Shown here: positions 2,807-42,177 of the stretch, piece after piece
How positions within the stretch are numbered: the first letter of the stretch is position 1
How the letters are laid out: each line of letters opens with the position of its first letter
IMG/VR virus record: IMGVR_UViG_3300045125_000169
Span: 24,840 to 88,839 of that record
Length of the DNA stretch: 64,000 nucleotides
DNA from: a virus
Direction: 5' to 3' (one strand)
Program-made: the position numbers and the translations under genes
Notes under the pieces: generated by a model
Seen by the model: the letters and a program-made list of their open reading frames with translations, nothing else
What the model was told of the DNA's origin: nothing
Database searches by the model: none

Positions 2807-3580
2807 TTACACTTCCATATCAACTTCTACTTCACCCTCATCCGTCATCACCTTGGTCTTGGTGGACTCTGGCTTGTAATAGGTGAGAGTCAGGTGGTTA
2901 GCGTCTTCTCCGATGGTGAAGTCCATCGACGACCCATCAGGGAAGTCCAGGGGCGCAATCGCCACACCGTCCATCTCCCGGTGCGTCCACTCTAGCTCGG
3001 GAAAGCGAATTTTGAGGTTATTTTTGATCTTCATGATATCGAGTTTTTCGTTCTCGTCTTTCGGGTTCCAGATATAAGTGGGCGGTTCGGGAAAGACCAT
3101 TTTGATATCAGGATAGACTTGCTTGACGGTGGACACTACGTCTTTAAAGAAAAGGTTTCTGGCAGAGACTTTGTAGGCCCGCATAACTTTCGTCAAAAAA
3201 CTTGAGCCCTCCGTGGGCTGTTTCTCGAAGGGACGCCTCTGCAAGTTCGTGATCTGGTCTAGGTTCGGGATGTCTAAAGCAGAGGGTTGAGAACCGCTAT
3301 CGTAAAGACCACCCTTGCCCTTAGGTTCATCTTTGGGGACTGTCTTGGGAAAGTTCAGCCCTTTATGAAAAAGGAGAACGGGGCGACCATCCTCTGTGAA
3401 CTCCACTTCATCGGTTCTTCCTGCGGGACCAGCGAAGCCAGAGGGTTCTCCAGCGGCCTGAGCCAACCGCGCTTTGGCTTGTTCGAGGGCCAGCCCAGGG
3501 TCGTCGGTGTGTTCAAGCTCTTCTGCGAGAGCTTGTGCCAGTTGGTCGAGATCTTCTAGCATGGTCAATCCCCCGATCAA
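2807..3580 (-). CDS. acidic hypothetical protein
   Basis: 257-aa ORF; the likely true start is MLEDL after a GGGG RBS. Confidence 0.7.
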   Translation of the reverse strand: MIGGLTMLEDLDQLAQALAEELEHTDDPGLALEQAKARLAQAAGEPSGFAGPAGRTDEVEFTEDGRPVLLFHKGLNFPKTVPKDEPKGKGGLYDSGSQPSALDIPNLDQITNLQRRPFEKQPTEGSSFLTKVMRAYKVSARNLFFKDVVSTVKQVYPDIKMVFPEPPTYIWNPKDENEKLDIMKIKNNLKIRFPELEWTHREMDGVAIAPLDFPDGSSMDFTIGEDANHLTLTYYKPESTKTKVMTDEGEVEVDMEV

Positions 3581-4984
3581 ATTAAATCAAAAAAGCTATC
3601 GATGGCATATTCACGATTAAAGTCGGTTGCTATACGCGGCCATTTGAAGGTGGGTTTATCATGGCGAACCATAACTTCATATACGTCTTTGTCTTCCTCT
3701 ATAATCTCGGGCACAAAAGGTAGAATCACTTTGAAAGGGAGAGCCAGCTTGATTTTGCTATCAGGCCAAAAACCCTCTTCATCGATTATGAAGAAGCAAT
3801 CGTCGTGAGGGGTGTCCGTGAAAAAATATTTAATATTCGCCCAGGCGTTAGCCTCAGTTCCTGCTTGCCAACCGTCATAAATCGCTTGGGACAATGCGGA
3901 ATCAAGCTCCTCCACGGCCTCTGTACTAAATTGGTGACTGAGCATATCCCGTACAACAGCCGCAGGTTCTGATTCAAATTTTGTTTTTACTTCGTCAACG
4001 TCTAGGTCCCATTGTTCGGCAAAGTTCTGAAGATCGTCCTGGGTAAATTTCTTGAATACATTTGCCATTTCTTTCTTGTCTGATACATCATCAAAAAAGT
4101 AAAGAATTTCATCTTGGTCTCTCGATTCAAAATTCGCCAATTCACTGTCATCAATAGTCGCTAAGAGGCTTTCGAGATCCGAGCTTTCATGTTTCGCATA
4201 GTCGGCAAGGTTATCCCACACCTGTAGAACAGCATCATCTCCAACCCACTCTTTCACGCCATGCTGCAAGAGCGTTTCTTTTGTGGCTTGTGGATTGCTT
4301 GTTAATTCCTCGATAAAGTCCACAAGGTCTTTACGAACACCTTTTGCGTTGAGCACCCCTGTTTTCGGTGTATCCCACTTGAATTTTGGCAACATGACAT
4401 CGCCACCGATCACAGGATCGTCCTCGATGTAGTTGACAGAGTAATGCCTGTCGGTAGCACTCCACGCCTGGACCTTACCTGCGGTGGACACTTCAAGAGC
4501 AACTTTGTAAAATGGATCATTAGGCTTACGAGTTTTCGAGATTAAAAAATAAAAGTGCGAGTCTCGGTTGTAGCGTCTCCAGTTGGACATGTCGTCTCGT
4601 GCCGAGATACACCATTTGGTGCCTGAGCCGTAGAGCTTCGATGCCTCGTAGCTCGTGATATGATAGACAACCCAGTTGTCGTCCTCGAACACTTGCTTGG
4701 CACCTTCCGTGCGAGCGAGTTTCTTTTGCGCTGTTTTAGACGTATTCTGGGATTGACTATCCATGAAGTCTTTGAACTCCTCCCAGGACTTTTTACCCCA
4801 ACTATCGATGTCGCGGTCGTCACCTTCAAGTTGATTGCGATCCCGTAAGGACTTGAATTTTTCCAGGTAGTCCTTCAGCACTTCGGGCGCTACCCCTTGG
4901 TCGAGAAATTTCTTCTCGACCGTCTTGAAGATCCGAGGTGACGAGAGTGTATTTGACTAAGACTTGGCTCAAGAACTTATACAT
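3577..4984 (-). CDS. GTxWC-family protein, paralogue 2 (unknown acidic C-terminal domain)
   Basis: Starts MYKFLSQVLVKY at 4984 and shifts frame at an extra A near 4931; contains WVVYHITSYEASKLYGSGTKWCI...YFLISK. Confidence 0.75.
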
Positions 4985-6136
4985 ACACTTTGCCTCCAAC
5001 TTTACATACCGCACGGACTTCTTCTTCAGTGAATTTTTTGGCGTTGTTCCTGCAATAAAAATCCCCACCAACCGTTTGAGGCGCTCCCTCAAGAGAGGTG
5101 AGGTTGTTGACGCTGCAATAAAAATCCCGACCAACCGTTTGAGGCGCTCCCTCAAGAGAGGTGAGGTTGTTGTTCCTGCAAGAAAAACCCCCACCAACCG
5201 TTTGAGGCGCACCCTCAAGAGATGTGAGTTTGTTGTCGCTGCAATAAAATCCCCACCAACCTTCGGAGGCGCTCCCTCAAGAGATGTGAGGTTGTTGTTG
5301 TTGCACTCAAAATCCCGACCAACCGTTTGAGGCGCTCCCTCAAGAGATGTGAGGTTGTTGTTGTTGCACTCAAAATCCCGACCAACCGTTTGAGGCGCAC
5401 CCTCAAGAGAGGTGAGGTTGTTGTCGCTGCAATCAAAACCCTCATCAACTTTTTGAGGCGCTCCCTTAAGAGAGGTGAGACCTTTCTCCGAGACATTAAT
5501 ATTTCCGCTACTATCGGCTTTCCACATCGGAGGTATTTTTAATTTAAAACTTGGTAGTTTTAAGTTGTTCGGTACGCTCTTATGATCCTTATCCGCTCGG
5601 TCCCAATATGTTTTATGTCCTTTTTTATTAACAAGAAGAGCTGTTTTAGACCAAGGGTCTTTCTGGTCTCTCGTCTTTGAGATTAGAAAATAAATCGTAT
5701 TATCGCTGTCATAGATATTCCAATGTTCACTTTTCTCATGTTTAATACACCACTCTGTTCCTTGACCGAGCTTATGAGATGCTTCGTTGGTCGTGATCTC
5801 GTACACCGTCCACTCGTCGTTCTCAGTAATAAATTCTGCTCCTGGGATGTTTTCTCTGAGATCAACTTTACCTTTTTTCTTTTCGGTAGAAGTCTTGGTT
5901 TTTTCCAAGTCCTCAATTCTTTCCTTAAACTCTTTAAAAGGCTTAGAGCCCCAAAAGTCGATATTTTTTTCATCGCCTTTAAGCTTATTGCGGTCTCTAA
6001 GCTTTTTGAACCGCTCTAAAGCATCCTTGACCTTTGACTTTTCAATCCCTTTGTCGAGAAATTTCTTCTCGACCGTCTTGAAGTCCGAGGTGACCAAAGT
6101 GTATTTGGCTAAGACTTGGCTCAAGAACTTATACAT
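4977..6136 (-). CDS. GTxWC-family protein, paralogue 1, with C-terminal LRR-like array
   Basis: WTVYEITTNEASHKLGQGTEWCI...YFLISK, then 7x LTSLEGAPQTVGxDFxCxxNN; restoring one T near 5250 gives a natural end KVGGKVYV* overlapping the next ATG. Confidence 0.8.
5040..5479 (-). repeat. seven 63-bp tandem coding repeats (21-aa LRR-like units)
   Basis: Units spaced 63 nt apart (e.g. gaggcgctccctcaagag at 5078 and 5141); 440 nt = 7x63 minus the 1-nt deletion. Confidence 0.95.
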
Positions 6137-7340: not shown

Positions 7341-8330
7341 TTACCGGATAATTTCCACACGAGGAGAGATAAGTTTTTTGAACTCATTCAGCCAGACTTC
7401 GGGTATTTTTTGACCGTAAATGATCTTCAAAAGGTAAGTGTCTTCTTTTTGAATGACCTCTACTATGCACTCAATTCTATTACGTCCTGAAAAGCCTACA
7501 GGGCTTAGAATCCGTAAAGTTTTATTCCAGTGGGTGTGCTTAACATACCGACGTGCGTGATTCAGAACCGTGTTGAGAGCATCGCGGTAGAGCCTTTCAC
7601 CCTCTGCGGCTGTTTGTTTTCTCAATTCTTCAGGGATATCCTCACCTTTTGGTAGGTGCTCGTTTATAAGCCGATCATAGTCCTCTTTCCAATACTCGTG
7701 GGATAAAATCCTTATCACCGAGGCGAGAAGAAGCTCGTGGAGTGCTTTGACAAATTTTGCACTCATGATCTTGGGAGCTAAGGAATCAGGGTTATTTCCG
7801 CCCAACTCCTCTCGGAAATTTTTTACAAAGGTATCTTGGATCTTTTTTCCTTCCGCGTCTCCCTTATAGAGGGAGAGCAAAACACCAGCCAAGACTGTGC
7901 GACTCCGACTGACGCGATACTCTGGCCCATAGAGGCCATCGAGGCAGCGTGTAATAATTCCCGTAAAGTCATCTTCATCGGGTACAGCGGTTTGTAGCTG
8001 AAGACGCGCCATCACGACGATCGGATTTCCACCGAATTTTCGGGATGTAGAGTTTGAGTAAGATATGCTCGTCATCACATTATTCGAGAAGTATACCCCA
8101 CCGTAGGACTTTCGTGATGGAGTCGTCGGACTCGCATCAGGATCTTCCTCTTTCCAAACTCCTTGTTTGGTCTGGGGTTGCAATCCTACTTTCAGAATTT
8201 TTTTGAGAAACGTCGAAGACGTACCGTGATAAAAGAGTTCCAAGGAAGACCTTGCAATCACCTTATACTTTTGGAAAGTATGCTGGTAAAATGCGCGTAA
8301 AGAATCCACCTTAGACTCCCATCCCGTCAA
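7341..8330 (-). CDS. ADP-ribosyltransferase-fold protein (HGT...GVYFS)
   Basis: FYHGTS...ILKVGL and YGGVYFS match the PARP/Tpt1-like NAD-binding core. Confidence 0.6.
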   Translation of the reverse strand: MTGWESKVDSLRAFYQHTFQKYKVIARSSLELFYHGTSSTFLKKILKVGLQPQTKQGVWKEEDPDASPTTPSRKSYGGVYFSNNVMTSISYSNSTSRKFGGNPIVVMARLQLQTAVPDEDDFTGIITRCLDGLYGPEYRVSRSRTVLAGVLLSLYKGDAEGKKIQDTFVKNFREELGGNNPDSLAPKIMSAKFVKALHELLLASVIRILSHEYWKEDYDRLINEHLPKGEDIPEELRKQTAAEGERLYRDALNTVLNHARRYVKHTHWNKTLRILSPVGFSGRNRIECIVEVIQKEDTYLLKIIYGQKIPEVWLNEFKKLISPRVEIIR

Positions 8331-14407: not shown

Positions 14408-15332
14408 AAATCTGCGTTTAAGCTCAATTCCGCATTGTCTGAGTGACTGTACTCAGAAACCTTACGCTCAAAGAAGTTCACCTTGGTTTCCATATCGTTC
14501 ATGCGCATAAAATCAAATGGATTTCTCTGCGCCGTAGATAGGGTCAAACCCGAACTTCTTGGTCACAAGGTCTGCAACGAACTCAATGTATTGGCACATC
14601 AGACCTGAGTTCATACCGATCAAGTTGACAGGGAGAGCATCGCAGACAAACTCTTTTTCAATCGCCACGGCTTCCATCATGATCTGATAGAAGTCAGCCT
14701 TGGAAATCTTAAGGCCCAACGTGTGATAGAGCATCACCGCAAACTCCCAGTGCATACCCTCATCCCGCGAGATCCAGTTGTTGGCCGTTGCGAGTCCTGG
14801 AAGGATTCCTCGCTTACGGAACCAAAAGATCGCACAGAAGGAACCACTGAAAAACACGCCTTCAACGATTGCAAACGCAACCAGTCTTTTGACAAAATCC
14901 GCTTGCGAATCCACCCAACACAAAGCCCACTCTGCTTTGCGCTTAACCGCAGGGACATTTTCTATGGCGTTGAAGAGTCGATCTTTTTCTTCGGGATCTT
15001 TGACATAGGTGTCAATTAAAAGAGCATACGTCCAGGCGTGGACCGCTTCCCTTGGATTTGATCGGGTAGAAGGCTCGTGCCTCTGGGATTTCAACCTCTT
15101 TATAAAACCGCACGGCAAGGTTTTCGTTCACAATCCCATCAGACTGAGCAAAGAACGCCAGGACGTGGGTGATATAATGGATCTCGCCTGGAGAAAGGGT
15201 CTTGAGATGAGCTAAGTCCTGGGAGAAGTCGATATCCTTAATGGTCCAAAACATCTTGTGGTGGGTCTCGAAGGCTTCCCAGAGTCCATGGTATTTGACA
15301 GGGAACAGTGAGTATTTGTTGTTACTCGACAT
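14404..15332 (-). CDS. nrdB: ribonucleotide reductase class Ia small subunit (two indels)
   Basis: SLFPVKY..W, FFAQSDGIVNENL, EAVH..TY, EGVFFSGSF, ISRDEGMH, C-terminal VNFFERKVSEY. Confidence 0.95.
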
Positions 15333-15470
15333 AAAGGAAGACCCTCTCCAAGACAGTCCACCAGGGAGCGAAGCCCCGAGTGGTTGAATTTTTTGGATTG
15401 TAGCTACCCTTACCGTGGCACCGAGGCACTCTTCTGTCAAGACGCAAGGAAAGTGCAACAGGCTGTTGCA

Positions 15471-19692: not shown

Positions 19693-22600
19693 TCATGAGC
19701 TACAAACGTCACAAGCCTCAGGATTGTCAATCGAGCAAGCTGCGACATCGTTTGCCAACTGCTCTTGCACGGTAACTTTGACAGAATCTTTGGCAGCTTT
19801 TGTGCGCAGGTAATACATCCCTGTCTTGAGGCCGCGCTTCCAGGCGTAGAGGTGCAGAGAGGCGATTTGGTCGATGGTCGGGTTAGCCATGTGAATATTC
19901 ATGGATTGGCTTTGGCAGACAAAAACCCCACGGTCGGTCGCCATGTCGATTACGACTTTTGGGAAATCTCCCAGACCGTCCGGTAGATTTTGCGCACGTC
20001 CTCAGGGATTCGCAGGATTTGCTGGACCGAACCATTGTTTGAAATAATTTGGTCCATCATCCGTTTGTCCCAAAGACCAAGCTCTTGCAGGTGCTTCACG
20101 AGATGCTTATTGATGACCACAAACTCACCTGCAAGCGTTTCCCGCTTGTAGAGGTTGCTCGTGTGAATTTCAAAAGCCTCGAAGTTATCGAAGATCTGGC
20201 TTGTGGATGCGGTGGGCATTGGGGCCAGGAGCAAGCTGTTGCGAGCACCGAATTTTTTACTCGTTCGCGCAAGGCTTCCCACGTCTCTTTGTGCTTCAGT
20301 GGAACCTCGTGCTCACCGTGCCAGAGGTCAAACTGGAAAAGACCTTGGGATAAAGGACTACCCGCAAAAGACTCATACGGACCATCTTTCTCCGCGAGGT
20401 CCACGGACGCTTGCATCGCTCCAAGGTAAATGGTCTCAAAGATTTCGTGATTCAGCTTGCGGGCCTCGGGTGAGTCGTAGGGAATCCTGAGCATCATAAA
20501 GGTGTCTGCAAGACCTTGCACCCCAATCCCGATGGGACGATGCTTAAGATTTGAGTTTTCGGTCGCGGGTGTCGGGTAGAAATTTTTGTCGATGACATGG
20601 TTGAGGTTCACCGTCGCGTCGTAAGAGACCTGCCGCAAACTTTCGAGATCGTAAGTATCCCCTTGGACAAATTTGGGCAGACAGATCGACGCGAGATTGC
20701 AGACCGCAGTTTCCTCGGCGCTGCTGTATTGGCAGACTTCCGTACAAAGGTTGGAGGACTTAATCGTCCCTAAATTTTTCTGGTTTGATTTACGGTTAAC
20801 GGAATCCTTGTAGAGCATGTAGGGAGTGCCTGTTTCCTTTTGCGAACTACAGATCCTTTTCATCAGGTCGGAGGCTTTGACGACCTTGCGTCCTCGGCCT
20901 TCGGCTTCATAGCGGGTATAAAGCTCTTCAAAGGCTTCGCCGTAGCAATCAAAAAGCCCTGGAGCCTCATCAGGGAGAAGAGGGTCCAGTTGCCGCCCTC
21001 TTGTAGGCGTTTCATAAATAGGTCTGGAATCCATAAAGCGGTGAACAGGTCATGGCACCGTCGCTCATCGTCCCCTGTGTTTTTCCGCAGGTCTAAAAAG
21101 TCCTCGACATCAGCGTGCCAGGGTTCAAGGTAAATCGCTGCCGAACCTTTGCGCTTACCCCCTTGGTTGACGTATCGAAAGGTGGCGTTAAGGTGTCGCA
21201 GCATGGGGATGATGCCATCCGAAAATCTCTGGCTCGACTTGATGATCGCACCATCGGCCCTGACGTTATGAACCCAAAGGCCAACGCCACCGGAATTTTT
21301 GAGATAATGGCACACTCTTTATCGGTGTCGTAGATGCCATTAAGGGAATCACTGCGGGTAGCTATTAAGAAACAATTTTCTGCTAAAAGACCGACCACCG
21401 AATAAGAATGGGTTTCTTCTACCCCCAAGGTGTAGACATATTCCGGTCTGGTCGAATTTTTGACTTTCGACGAGATCCTTAAAAAATTATTCCCCTCAAT
21501 TTCCAAGACTTGTCCCGATTTCGTCTCGCGTTGCCTTGCTAAGTTAATCCGATCATCCCCATATTGCTTCAAGGGATTGAGGTCCAAGGTATGTGGTATG
21601 CCCATGTAGGCGAGCTTTGATCCTTTATCCTGAAAGGAGACGTCGATCCCGACTTGCCTTGCGACCATGTAAAATTCTTTTACTAGTTTCTTATTTGATA
21701 AGGTAACACCATATCCAGATCCATTCGCGTACACATGGCCATCACTAGAAACAAGACCTTCCAAGAGGGCAACCACGAGATCTCGGTGCCAGGAGAAGAT
21801 ATCTTTAAAGAGACGTTTTCCATCAAAACCTTTGCCGAACAGATGGTAGAAGATATTTGCCAAAATCGTTGAGTGAACAGTAACACTTACAACATTCGGA
21901 TTTTTTGAGTGCGGAAGGTGCGTTACTTTGACATTTAAGCCAAAGGCCCGACTCATGTAATCCTGACAAAAATCGATCAAAGGCTTATTTTCATAATGAA
22001 TCGCGATATTTATATTCTTCAAGTACCGTCTACCAGAAGCATTTTTCCCTGATGCAATACTACCGTCACCGTACCAGATACCAAGAAATTTTGCGAAATC
22101 CCGATCGATTTTGATAAAGCGATTGATCGAACTGTTCTTTCTGCACAAATAGACCTCCGAATCGCTTGCATTCAAGCGATGTGGTCTTTGCCAGGTGCTT
22201 ACCGTGTGTATCTTGTCCTCTACTACGTCAAACGTGAAGTTGACGTTGCCATTATCGGATTTTGGAAGGTATGGCAAAAAGTCCGACAAATCGACAACAT
22301 AATCGTTTTTGCCAGAAAGCATTTTTGGAATAGCAATATAATCCCCTTTTCTCAGGGATTCTATGCTGTTCATTTGGGGTTGCTCACCCCAAGCGATTTG
22401 TTCCTTCGTAATTGAGAAGAATCGATGATTGCCCGTAACCGTGAAGCTAGGCGTTTTAAAAACTTTAACATCAAAAAGCTGTCGGTCATTTAGTTTATTC
22501 TTGTGTACCTGGACTACTTTTTCAACAGTCCCCTTGTGCGTCACGACGAGATCGCCTATCTGAGTGCTCTCAATAGGTTTAATTCCATCATTAACAGTTA

Positions 22601-23291
22601 AGATTTCAGTTCCCTCAACAAAGCAACTTGACATTTGCGGCCTACTGGTTCCCGCGTTGAAAAGCGTAGGTGTTGCATGAGTATAGAAGCCGAGCGAAAG
22701 GTAGTCGTAGAGCTTTTTGACTTGTTCGATATTTGCTCCGCAGATCCCAACGGCGACACGGAGAAAAAGACTCTGCGGCCTTTCAACAACTTTTCGCTCG
22801 CAGGCCCAGGAGCCATCGGCAAGGCGTTTTCTGCTAGAGGTGTCGATGATCCCAAGCAGGTATTTGCTTTCGAGGGTTTTGAAACCGAAGTACGAGAAAC
22901 TGAAGTCGCGTGTGTAGTCGATGATCTGGTCCAAGCCTTCGGGTCTGAGAGCTTGAGCATCCTGCATAAAGGAGTCTGACAGGACACCCGCTTGATGCAA
23001 CTGGGTCCACGCTTCCCAAAAGTCGTCGGGAGTTTCTTTGTGGAGAGCAGAGGCCGCGATGCCTGCGGCGAGTTTGTCATAGTCAGGATGCTCAGGAGCG
23101 AGCACCGCAGCAGTTTCAATGAGGAGGCGATCGAGTTCTCGGGTGGTGATCCCATCGCAAAGACCACCGACCACTTTTTGCGCTATGAGTACGGGCTCGA
23201 CCTTGAGCCCAGCCGAGCGGTTTTTGACTCGGTTAAGAATTTTGTCAAAAGACACTTCCTCGCGTTGACCGTTCCGTTTCACAACCTGCAT
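19693..23291 (-). CDS. nrdA: ribonucleotide reductase class Ia large subunit with ATP cone and intein (four indels)
   Basis: [11 protein letters not shown] cone, [72 protein letters not shown]-terminal CDVCSS. Confidence 0.95.
21375..22625 (-). mobile_element. intein (417 aa) with LAGLIDADG homing endonuclease
   Basis: Starts CFVEGTEI; block B TGNH; LGIWYGDGS and LEGLVSSDG; ends [21 protein letters not shown]|C; removal restores QMSSCFL. Confidence 0.95.
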
Positions 23292-24309: not shown

Positions 24310-25464
24310 CTACTTCCAACGCAGGCGTTCGATCAGTTTGAGCTTCCTGGTATTGACGGTTTTCCAGTCATCTTCTAAAAGACCCCCTGTATCGCCTGAG
24401 TTGGGGTTCAGACTCCAGAAAAAAGTGTTAGTCAAGGACTTTTTTCGCAGATAATTCACAAAAGCCTCGCCCCAGACCTGATCGAGCCCCTCGAAGCGGC
24501 CTCCCCATTCCCCTATGACCAGGGCAAAATCCTCTTGGTCTTTGATATAACCAAAGTGCTCTTCCCAGATCGCGGGCATGTTGCTTGGAAAGTCTTGGGT
24601 GAGGAAATAGTCCTGCTTGGCTACCGAGGGGCCGTAGACGTGGGGACTAAGAACCACTTGAGTGCGGGGGAGTCGAATCGGCTTGGCAACTGCCTCGGTC
24701 AAATTTTCCCCCAAAAGGCATACTGCTTTCCTAGGGGCGACTCATTTCCGACACCTTCCACAAAGAGCAAAATTTTGGGGTTGATTTTTAGGATCTCTGC
24801 TCCTGCCTTTTCCACCATAAGACGCCACTGGTCCCAGGTCAGACCGTAGGGTTCATTAAATAGATCGATGCCCATCACGTTGTCGTATGAAAGGGAAAGT
24901 TGGGCGAGGGTCTTCAGATCCTCTATCCAACGCTCAACGGAGTAGTTTGCACAACTCCCAACCCCTGGTCCTGGCTTGTCGGTATGGGATAAGCGGTTGC
25001 TACAGGTGTGCAAGTCTAAAAGCACATACATTTCTTTTTGGAATTGGTGTAGGCCAGGAGCTTCTTTAACTGTTCGAGAGGGGAAGAGTAACCGTCTTTG
25101 CCTGGAGCTTTTCCGGCCAAAGACTCGGGTGCTAAGGGGATACGGAGCGAGTTGAAGCCGATTTGATGGACTTGATCGACGATACTCTCCAGAGATCGTC
25201 CACTCCAGAGTCCATGCAATCCTAGATACTCGCCTTCCAGGCCGAACCAGTTGATACCTCGGACAGAGGTAGGCAGACCGTGCGCGTGAATCATGTGATT
25301 TCTTTTATCCACGTAAAAAGACTCCTTACGTCCACGCACTCACCAAACACGTCATTGCACAAAGGTCGCGGTGGCATTTGTGGGGCCTCTAGCACGGTTT
25401 CGAGCCCACATGCCTGCAAACTCAAGAGCAGAAAAAGACAAAGAAGTCCCTTAAAGTACGACAT
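24310..25464 (-). CDS. GH5 endoglucanase-type glycoside hydrolase, lipoprotein (three indels)
   Basis: MSYFKGLLCLFLLLSLQAC signal after AAGGAG; RGINWFGLE, FNSLRIP, LLDLH, LFNEPY, IGEWGG, FWSLNPNSGDTGGLL. Confidence 0.9.
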
Positions 25465-40178: not shown

Positions 40179-40694
40179 TCAGAGGAGAACACATCGGTCG
40201 ATGTCGTACACCAAGTCTGCTTCAGGTTTTTTATCAAAACGACCGAGAATAAAGTAGGTTTTCTCTTTGTAGACGAGGATTTCAGAGGTCGAATCTGTGC
40301 GAGAAAGGATATAATATCGCGGTCTTTTGACACCAGTAATTGCAGAAACAGCATCGTACCAGCCGCGCTCAAAACTCGAAATCGGACTACACGTCACCTC
40401 TCGGACTTCTGCCGATGCTGTATTTTCGAGCGGTGTAGTTGCAAGCCCGATGATGAAAGCAGGCATCGTCAGACACATGCGGAAAAGTTTGCCTCGGTCT
40501 TCTTCAGACTTTTCAACCAACGTCGCATAAATACCGATCAGAAGTCCGATGAACATCGACGGGAGCATCGCACCAAAAAACGCTTCGATGTTATCAACCC
40601 TAACTTCATTTTGCGTGATTTTGATGGTCGGATAAAGAATCGAAGAAACAAAACCAATACCAAAGCGTTCATACCAGTTCATAACATACCTCAC
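40179..40694 (-). CDS. membrane protein (about three TM segments) with C-terminal soluble domain
   Basis: Hydrophobic segments in the first 90 aa. Confidence 0.7.
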   Translation of the reverse strand: MRYVMNWYERFGIGFVSSILYPTIKITQNEVRVDNIEAFFGAMLPSMFIGLLIGIYATLVEKSEEDRGKLFRMCLTMPAFIIGLATTPLENTASAEVREVTCSPISSFERGWYDAVSAITGVKRPRYYILSRTDSTSEILVYKEKTYFILGRFDKKPEADLVYDIDRCVLL

Positions 40695-41152
40695 TCGCGT
40701 AATTTAAAAATATTGCCATCTTCAGGTGTTTCGGCGAGCATCGTGAACCATAGATCATTTTTATCGCCCGCCACTCCGATTCCGATCGTTTTCAAATTCG
40801 GGTACGTTATAACTTTGTAGTTGTATTCATCCAAAAACCATTGCCCTAGTGCGTGGCCGAAGTCGGGAACTTTGCAGGCTATGATCTCAGTACCACCGCG
40901 AATTTCGCCTTCGCAAAGTCGCACACGATCCCAAAACTGGGTACCATCTACAGGGTTTTCGTGCCCACAAAACTGAAGCCGCCACATTTGTTTCGACCAA
41001 ACTCTAGCTCCACACTCCAAGTCCTTCCGCAGGACCACCTCAGAAAGACCTATGCGAGTTCTTTCCTCATTAATAGCAATAAGCATCTCTTCTGGTGTTT
41101 CCAACGCCCAGCTATCGGAGGAAGCTATCAATAAGAGGAAGAAAATTAGCAT
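40691..41152 (-). CDS. secreted CAP/SCP-domain protein
   Basis: Signal peptide; INEER...L...A..WS..M....H, EIIA, QW, IGIG. Confidence 0.8.
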   Translation of the reverse strand: MLIFFLLLIASSDSWALETPEEMLIAINEERTRIGLSEVVLRKDLECGARVWSKQMWRLQFCGHENPVDGTQFWDRVRLCEGEIRGGTEIIACKVPDFGHALGQWFLDEYNYKVITYPNLKTIGIGVAGDKNDLWFTMLAETPEDGNIFKLRE

Positions 41153-42177
41153 TATCTTAGCTTCCTTCTTAATTCATCGGAGCACTTAATTTTTGCAGGG
41201 TCATCAACAAAGATACAATTTCGCACTTTTAGCCCTACGGGCAGCGAGGTGATATTAGTCCCCTGGAGATAAAGACTACCGACGTCAAGATCCTTAGGCA
41301 AAGAGGTGATTTCGCTACCACTAAGATCGAGAAGACGCCCGACTTTTAGGCCCTCAGGCAAAGAAGTGATCTTGGTGTCCCTGAGTTCGAGAACACGCCC
41401 GACTTCAAGACCTTCGGGCAAAGATGTGATATCGGTGCCTCTAATGTTGAGGTCCCATTCGACCTTGAGTCCTTCGGGCAAAGAGGCGATCTTGGTGTGT
41501 TGCAGGTAAAGGTCTTCAGCGACTTTAAGATTTTTTGGTAAATTATTTATGTTCTCGTAGTGCTTACCATTGATCGTGATATGAGTAGGCGCTACTGTTT
41601 TAAATTTGGGAATTTGGAGATTTTGAGGCACTTCATCATGCGCAAAATCAAGAGCGTCCCAATAGGTTTTATCGCCAAAACGGTCCACCAAAACAGCGAT
41701 TTTTGCCCAACAAAATTTTTTCGGATCTAGCTTCTTTGATATGATGTAGTAAATATTATTATGAGCAACTTCCTCTTCATAATGCTCTCCATCTTCCTCA
41801 GTCAAACACCATTTCGTATCAGATCCATAAAGCATCGCAGCCTTGTGAGATGTGATCTCGTAAACTCTCCAGTCTTCGTTTTCCGCGATAAGTTTCGCAC
41901 CCTTAACCCTTGCTTGTTTTTTTCTCTTCGGTCTTAGTTTTTACTTTACTCTGTTTATCAACGAAGGACTTAAAGTCTTTGAAAGACTTTTTGCCCCAAA
42001 GGTCGATATTTTTATCATCGCCTGAGAGCTTATTTTTATCCCTCAATTCCTTGAACTTGGCGAGGTAGTCTTTCACCAAAGGCTTTTGAATCCCTTGTTC
42101 AAGGAACTTTTCTCAACCGTTTTAAAGTCAGAGACGACGAGATATTTTGATTTTACTTTGAAGAAAAAGTTCAACAT
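41152..42177 (-). CDS. GTxWC-family protein, paralogue 3, with ITSLPEGLKVG-type LRRs
   Basis: MLNFFFKVKSKYLVVSDFKTVEK...WRVYEITSHKAAMLYGSDTKWCL...YYIISK, then 5-6 repeats of about 20-21 aa; indels in the 5' part. Confidence 0.8.

Follow-up and report, generated by a model that had tools for sequence, protein, structure and literature searches.

What kind of proteins are encoded by two adjacent viral genes that begin almost identically and end in unrelated sequences? The question was raised by genes A and B, which lie in tandem at positions 3577 to 6136 of a 64,000-nucleotide (nt) stretch of the IMG/VR virus record IMGVR_UViG_3300045125_000169 (positions 24,840 to 88,839 of that record; the whole stretch is referred to here as the window). 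The parent record measures ∼109 kb and is classified by IMG/VR as a provirus, 53% complete. Sequence comparison showed A, B, and a third gene, C, to be paralogues within a large, mostly phage family whose members join a constant module to a lineage-specific tail. Our preferred reading, to which we assign a probability of roughly 60%, is that these module-plus-tail paralogues are intact in the real phage and that their products would serve as intracellular effectors or adaptors guided by their tails.

Architecture of genes A, B, and C

All features of the three genes are on the minus strand. Gene A (4977 to 6136) encodes 386 amino acids (aa) and gene B (3577 to 4984) encodes 468 aa, each being read with one undetermined residue placed at its frame break (see below). 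The ATG of gene A is at 6136, and its TAA (4977 to 4979) overlaps the ATG of gene B (ATGTATAA). An earlier note on this DNA, the sequence-only reading, had described a shared N-terminal helix and GTxWC domain, and this was borne out by a 46% amino acid identity between the A and B modules over ∼165 residues. In gene A, the constant module (5582 to 6136, approximately residues 1 to 185) comprises a helical subdomain, a Lys/Glu-rich linker, and an alpha/beta subdomain with the sequence GTEWC. It is followed by seven repeats resembling leucine-rich repeats (LRRs; 5040 to 5479) and by a conserved C-terminal cap. The seven copies of 63 nt (21 aa), of the type LTSLEGAPxxVGxxFxCxxNN, were related by 88% matches, in agreement with the LRR-like array noted earlier. 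Against Pfam LRR_4 (PF12799), gene A scored 17.4 bits, which is below the cutoff of 27, with a regular period of 21 aa. More than 5700 database proteins carry a repeat of the gene A type, and many of the close ones have a precomputed PF12799 assignment.

In gene B, the constant module (4435 to 4984, with W106, C107, and K142 conserved) is joined to an acidic C-terminal domain (3577 to 4434) with an isoelectric point (pI) of 4.23, confirming the acidic character previously attributed to it. Its 285 aa include 63 Asp plus Glu and 27 Lys plus Arg. This tail had just four recognizable relatives and was mostly helical in a model of moderate quality (predicted local distance difference test [pLDDT] score of 68.8, one of five models, built from a 5-sequence alignment); Foldseek searches of the PDB and AFDB with this moderate model gave no fold match. 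The length of 468 aa is exactly that of the intact orthologue P0005; in the module region, B shared 90% identity with P0005 and 87% with P0007, another intact orthologue (469 aa).

Gene C (41152 to 42177) came to light when the 109-kb record was searched in all six frames. Its module is that of A and B, joined to another type of LRR (TSLPEGLKV, ∼21 aa), which scored 20.3 bits against Pfam LRR and was likewise sub-threshold. Directly downstream of gene C, with overlapping start and stop, is a gene for a CAP/SCP-domain protein (40691 to 41152, minus strand; PF00188, E = 7e-9) with a hydrophobic N terminus.

A constant module with diverse tails

An exhaustive phmmer search with the module recovered, at the level of 50%-identity clusters, 3349 representatives with E ≤ 1e-3, of which 722 had E ≤ 1e-10; their lengths ranged from 131 to 2421 aa. 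Of 161 retrieved family members, 128 had the module at the N terminus and 33 had it internally; two to five copies of it were counted in 25 members. The tails of at least 60 aa, 139 in number, fell into 49 unrelated BLAST clusters. The proposal that a constant module is placed on variable partners was thereby upheld, and the catalogue of homologues and partners showed neither a single fixed architecture nor a known stand-alone enzyme. Partner domains identified with Pfam were LRR_5, LRR_8, LRR_4, DUF4116, FNIP, HEAT, DUF5649, SprT-like, and GGACT, while shape searches added ankyrin and WG repeats. The nearest Atlas clusters were 80 to 100% viral.

Databases already contain this architecture, and A, B, and C form a phage subfamily that is new but belongs to a known, uncharacterized kind. 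The family ranks among the larger phage protein families without an assigned function, comprising thousands of 50%-identity clusters and often several copies per large phage, and intact orthologues exist for expression.

Fold, conservation, and relatives of the module

The constant module, referred to below as the WC module, has ∼180 residues and is basic (pI ∼9). Its AlphaFold model, with a mean pLDDT of 86.7, consists of a helical subdomain (residues 1 to 61), a low-confidence Lys/Glu linker and helix (62 to 75), and an alpha/beta subdomain (77 to 165). Residue conservation was counted over 203 aligned modules and is given in the numbering of P0003. The pair W106-C107 was present in 202 modules, and in the model C107 starts a short helix (107 to 110). 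Other strongly conserved residues were G101 (192 modules), Y120 (182), K132 (179), and E82 (171), and T104, Y127, K142, and D160 were each the commonest residue at their site, within a range of 161 to 192 modules.

There was no transmembrane or signal-like segment, the maximum KD19 values being 0.61 for A and 1.35 for B. The first ∼18 residues (h-h-x-x-D before FKT) recur ahead of internal copies of the module in P0008 and P0011 and therefore appear to belong to the module rather than to a removable leader. The capsid-targeted internal proteins of the T4 type have a cleavable N-terminal targeting sequence that the mature domain lacks; in the WC proteins, the N-terminal ∼18 residues look like part of the fold.

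The module directly matched two phage families of unassigned function, phrog_28193 (E = 1.6e-20 for B and 7.7e-13 for A, at profile positions ∼15 to 185) and phrog_17056 (E = 1.3e-15 for B and 6.6e-06 for A). The two profiles have 681 and 420 positions, respectively, of which just the first ∼170 to 185 matched, indicating that the tails differ.

Pfam family PF14284 is named after PcfJ of the Enterococcus faecalis plasmid pCF10. Its gathering cutoff of 25 bits was not reached by P0003 (15.8 bits), by the module alone (18.4 bits), or by the record translated in six frames (18.1 bits); 22 of 71 modules matched PcfJ at E ≤ 0.1, with a best value of 2.4e-5. In a Foldseek search of the AFDB clusters, PcfJ-like entries were returned at E values of 4e-3 to 3e-2 and probabilities of 0.96 to 0.99, with template modeling scores of just 0.33 to 0.35, and AlphaFold entries named PcfJ-like, DUF4116, or LRR share the shape of the module. 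The alpha/beta subdomain aligned to PcfJ profile positions 38 to 127. Like the WC module, PcfJ characteristically occurs in phages and mobile elements and is found ahead of variable binding domains, whereas the WC subfamily differs by its own N-terminal helical subdomain (DFKTVEKKF...). Judging from these comparisons, the most fitting view of the WC module is that of a distant sister group of PcfJ, outside the Pfam family itself. A search of the PDB with a sequence profile of the module gave chance-level matches to VapD (E = 0.07). The literature on PcfJ contained no functional study, the gene being merely listed or confounded with pCFJ plasmids, and that on DUF4116 held nothing relevant. PcfJ-like motifs have been described upstream of the variable regions of diversity-generating retroelements in bacteria of the candidate phyla radiation (PMC5758913). 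At E ≤ 0.1, the 109-kb record gave no match to RVT_1, although at 53% completeness a distant reverse transcriptase may lie outside it.

The shared 5' tract

A repeat search and alignment placed the near-identical 5' tract at 6047 to 6136 in gene A and at 4894 to 4984 in gene B, both on the minus strand. Of its 91 aligned columns, 86 are identical (95%) and one contains a gap, and the near-identity of the two 5' ends reported earlier was accordingly reproduced. It was composed of two repeat pairs, 4932 to 4984 versus 6084 to 6136 (94% identical) and 4894 to 4930 versus 6047 to 6083 (97% identical), whose spacings of 1152 and 1153 nt reveal a shift of one base from one pair to the other. When A and B were aligned with MAFFT, the first three 30-column bins were 97%, 90%, and 97% identical; past approximately nt 91, identity fell abruptly to 40%, and the later bins spanned 17 to 73%, most of them 30 to 65%.

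The first ∼14 residues of P0005 and P0007 differ from those of B, and agreement with B resumes directly past the tract, which points to a recent homogenization of the A and B 5' ends. The tract therefore looks like the footprint of a recent gene conversion between A and B in this lineage. Because the shared N terminus mixes features of A-type and B-type orthologues, the conversion may have run in either direction. The comparison thus showed A and B to be tandem duplicates whose first ∼30 codons were, as far as the sequences reveal, recently homogenized in this way.

The sequence-only reading had viewed the direct repeat as a recombination cassette for shuffling the C-terminal domains. This idea was not supported: the tract spans just the first ∼30 codons of a module of ∼180 codons and so cannot be the site of tail exchange. 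Because the tails change past residue ∼180, recombination within the tract could only delete or duplicate the body of gene A.

Frame breaks in the three genes

The sequence-only reading had passed over frame breaks in both A and B: each contains a 1-nt break that had gone unreported. The break in gene A lies at 5246 to 5249, in a run of four T (T4) within repeat 4, where the repeat spacing is 62 nt; repeats 6 and 7 have T5. As a result of the break, the listed open reading frame (ORF) of 436 aa (4826 to 6136) runs through repeats 5 to 7 out of frame and then into the start of gene B. In the right frame, three further repeats follow the break, and then a short cap extends to the TAA. This end (P0004) matches that of P0168 (447 aa) and P0091 (408 aa), two intact homologues. 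The identity of the cap indicates that the break is a lesion or an error. The 436-aa ORF was considered as a genuine A-B fusion and rejected, since its out-of-frame stretch displaces the tail that is conserved in the intact homologues.

In gene B, one extra base at 4930 to 4931 (GGATCTTC compared with GGACTTC in gene A) follows codon 18. Consequently, the body, read from 4929 to 3577, is in a different frame from the ATG at 4984 and the first 54 nt. Gene C has two breaks, at 42108 to 42111 and 41917 to 41923, both in runs of A. Together, the three genes contain four 1-nt breaks in 3.6 kb.

Similar damage was found elsewhere in the window. The small subunit of ribonucleotide reductase (RNR; 14513 to 15458, minus strand) is divided between two ORFs (Pfam positions 3 to 85 and 91 to 277), with two 1-nt shifts ∼30 nt apart in short C and G/A runs. 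A GH5 cellulase-family gene (24310 to 25339, minus strand) is spread over three frames (positions 7 to 73, 73 to 168, and 173 to 272), with shifts at A5 and G5/A4 runs. Seven of the eight located break sites adjoined runs of at least three identical bases, and ∼17 same-strand ORF overlaps of >13 nt were counted in the window. The four breaks in A, B, and C are therefore part of a window-wide pattern of indels, mostly at homopolymer runs. Since like indels split the RNR small subunit and the GH5 gene, they are most likely assembly or sequencing errors, and the proteins of the real phage are probably intact, with lengths of ∼386, 468, and 341 aa as predicted from the corrected frames. The ORFs of the window, as they stand, should accordingly be used with caution, being artefactually fused or truncated.

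An improbable alternative is that A, B, and C are genuine pseudogenes, the remnants of an expanded family in a decaying prophage. The classification of the record as an incomplete provirus would agree with this, as would the clustering of four breaks within 3.6 kb, the many further broken genes in the window, and the extra base in gene B, which does not lie in a homopolymer and falls inside the converted tract, so that this break could be real. Against decay, all located damage consisted of 1-nt indels, nearly always next to short runs; no in-frame nonsense codons or deletions were noticed in the inspected genes; and amino acid identity to intact orthologues was 76 to 90%, also past the breaks. 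Damage confined to indels in conserved coding sequence fits homopolymer sequencing error better than decay.

Still less credible is a functional role for the indels in programmed frameshifting or phase-variable expression, in which case the 5' tract, together with its hairpin, would serve in regulation or recombination. Of the four breaks, three sit in A or T runs, and a perfect palindrome with an 8-bp stem and a 5-nt loop was present at 4900 to 4920 and 6053 to 6073, in genes A and B only (0.01 expected by chance). The RNA fold of the gene B 5' region had a z score of −3.1. The palindrome is explained by VEKKFLD, a conserved peptide with mutually complementary codons. Gene C has only a degraded version, and the version in the related contig L005, which carries a B orthologue, has two changes. 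The runs are short (4 to 7 nt), the intact orthologues lack such breaks, and like indels also interrupt housekeeping-type genes, namely, those for the RNR small subunit and GH5. Sequencing or assembly error is thus retained as the most likely explanation for the breaks.

Proposed role of the proteins

The reading of A, B, and C as tail-guided intracellular effectors or adaptors is suggested by the combination of a constant domain with many binding-type tails, by the presence of several copies per genome, and by a gene context of replication and accessory functions. The neighbors of A and B include genes for a DHH phosphoesterase, an SNF2 helicase, a PARP-like protein, and RNR, with no recognizable virion genes among them. 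The proteins would act inside the infected cell, where the swappable tail would select a host or rival target and the constant module would perform a common job, either chemistry via the invariant Cys or docking to a host machine that the members share as a target. A family engaged in an arms race, for host takeover or counter-defense, would be consistent with the duplication, conversion, and tail exchange. Given the invariant Trp-Cys and the repeated fusion to binding scaffolds, the module appears to be a promising candidate device for host targeting or counter-defense in general.

Phage receptor-binding proteins keep a conserved anchor and swap their distal domains, and a virion-borne role, which is the delivery/anchor idea of the sequence-only reading, was considered on this account. 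The N-terminal module would then anchor the protein at the neck, collar, tail, or head interior of the particle, and the variable tail would attach to the cell surface or become active once ejected. A conserved N terminus, a variable C terminus, tandem paralogues, and recombination at the conserved end are common to the WC genes and the classic receptor-binding-protein pattern. The WC genes differ by their nonstructural context, which in the window consists of replication and nucleotide metabolism genes, and by partners typical of intracellular proteins (HEAT, ankyrin, SprT-like, and GGACT). The module is also internal in some members and is present in up to five copies per protein, which would be odd for an anchor, and no trimeric fiber or beta-helix features were seen. 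A virion-borne role was judged less likely than an intracellular one, yet it is a rival to be taken seriously.

Several observations weigh against the intracellular, intact-gene reading. Among the four contexts in which neighborhoods of family members were inspected, one placed P0019 (365 aa) directly upstream of, and overlapping, a Phage_T4_gp13-like neck gene (L008:8001-9859), a position that would suit a virion role just as well. The non-homopolymeric extra base in gene B, discussed above, bears on intactness, and a 167-nt freshwater contig identical to part of gene A (see below) spans none of the break sites. With regard to the module itself, the structural comparison advised in the sequence-only reading succeeded in retrieving PcfJ-like AFDB entries and yielded nothing convincing in the PDB (E > 0.2). 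A wide VIA structure search with the module gave a best Z score of 5.4, with helices only, and searches of ncbifam and PADLOC gave no meaningful match. The invariant Cys suggests chemistry, but the invariant Trp-Cys could instead be structural. No conserved His accompanied the Cys in the aligned modules, making a classical Cys-His hydrolase unlikely.

A more specific version of the effector proposal can be offered tentatively, and we hold it doubtful: the WC module may be a new Cys-dependent catalytic or hub-docking domain, aimed by LRR, ankyrin, HEAT, DUF4116, or acidic tails, with the tail of B possibly a nucleic acid mimic. If true, phages at large would possess an effector system of the "one warhead, many guides" kind, whose logic would resemble that of F-box or NEL effectors. 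In the latter, namely, LRR plus NEL E3 ligases (IpaH/SspH) and F-box plus repeat proteins, one constant domain is combined with swappable repeats. By analogy, the likeness would lie in a constant domain with LRR-, ankyrin-, or HEAT-type scaffolds, in an invariant Cys, and in paralogue expansion. There is no relation in sequence or fold, an LRR match to SspH2 at E = 0.0076 being at chance level; the order is reversed in the WC proteins, where the constant domain comes first, and no ubiquitin-like chemistry is implied.

Occurrence of the locus and neighboring genes

A nucleotide search of GenBank phages with the locus gave no match, and a search of viral contigs for a related locus with a single query sequence found none. 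An exact-sequence look-up of the window's own ORF recorded no identical entry. The sole tblastn match was Salicola phage SCTP-2, with at least six module-like places, and all genes at or near the match were annotated as hypothetical. Among public sequencing runs, one DNA run matched (5% of words), and no RNA run was listed with a match. The 167-nt contig, from a 2021 freshwater metagenome run, was identical to gene A at 5644 to 5810, which indicates that the phage or a near twin is present in fresh water.

Just downstream of gene B is a gene for a 257-aa protein without a family (2807 to 3580, minus strand). A 64%-identical homologue is found at L005:5056-5781, two genes upstream of the B orthologue, and the 257-aa gene and gene B may therefore form a conserved linkage. 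L005 had only two genes in common with the record. Three genes upstream of gene A, a 329-aa protein (7341 to 8330, minus strand) gave a weak match to PARP (PF00644, E = 4.6e-5, below the cutoff) and is a possible ADP-ribosyltransferase.

The RNR large subunit (20096 to 23291, minus strand) contains an intein with a LAGLIDADG homing endonuclease (ORF 21093 to 23291), the remainder of the RNR barrel being in the ORF at 20096 to 21034. In L008, a 155-kb T4-like metagenomic contig, LAGLIDADG genes were present on both sides of the gp23 gene near P0019. At the edge of the gene block in the window, a TM2-domain membrane protein is encoded at 953 to 1351 on the plus strand (PF05154, E = 3e-27).

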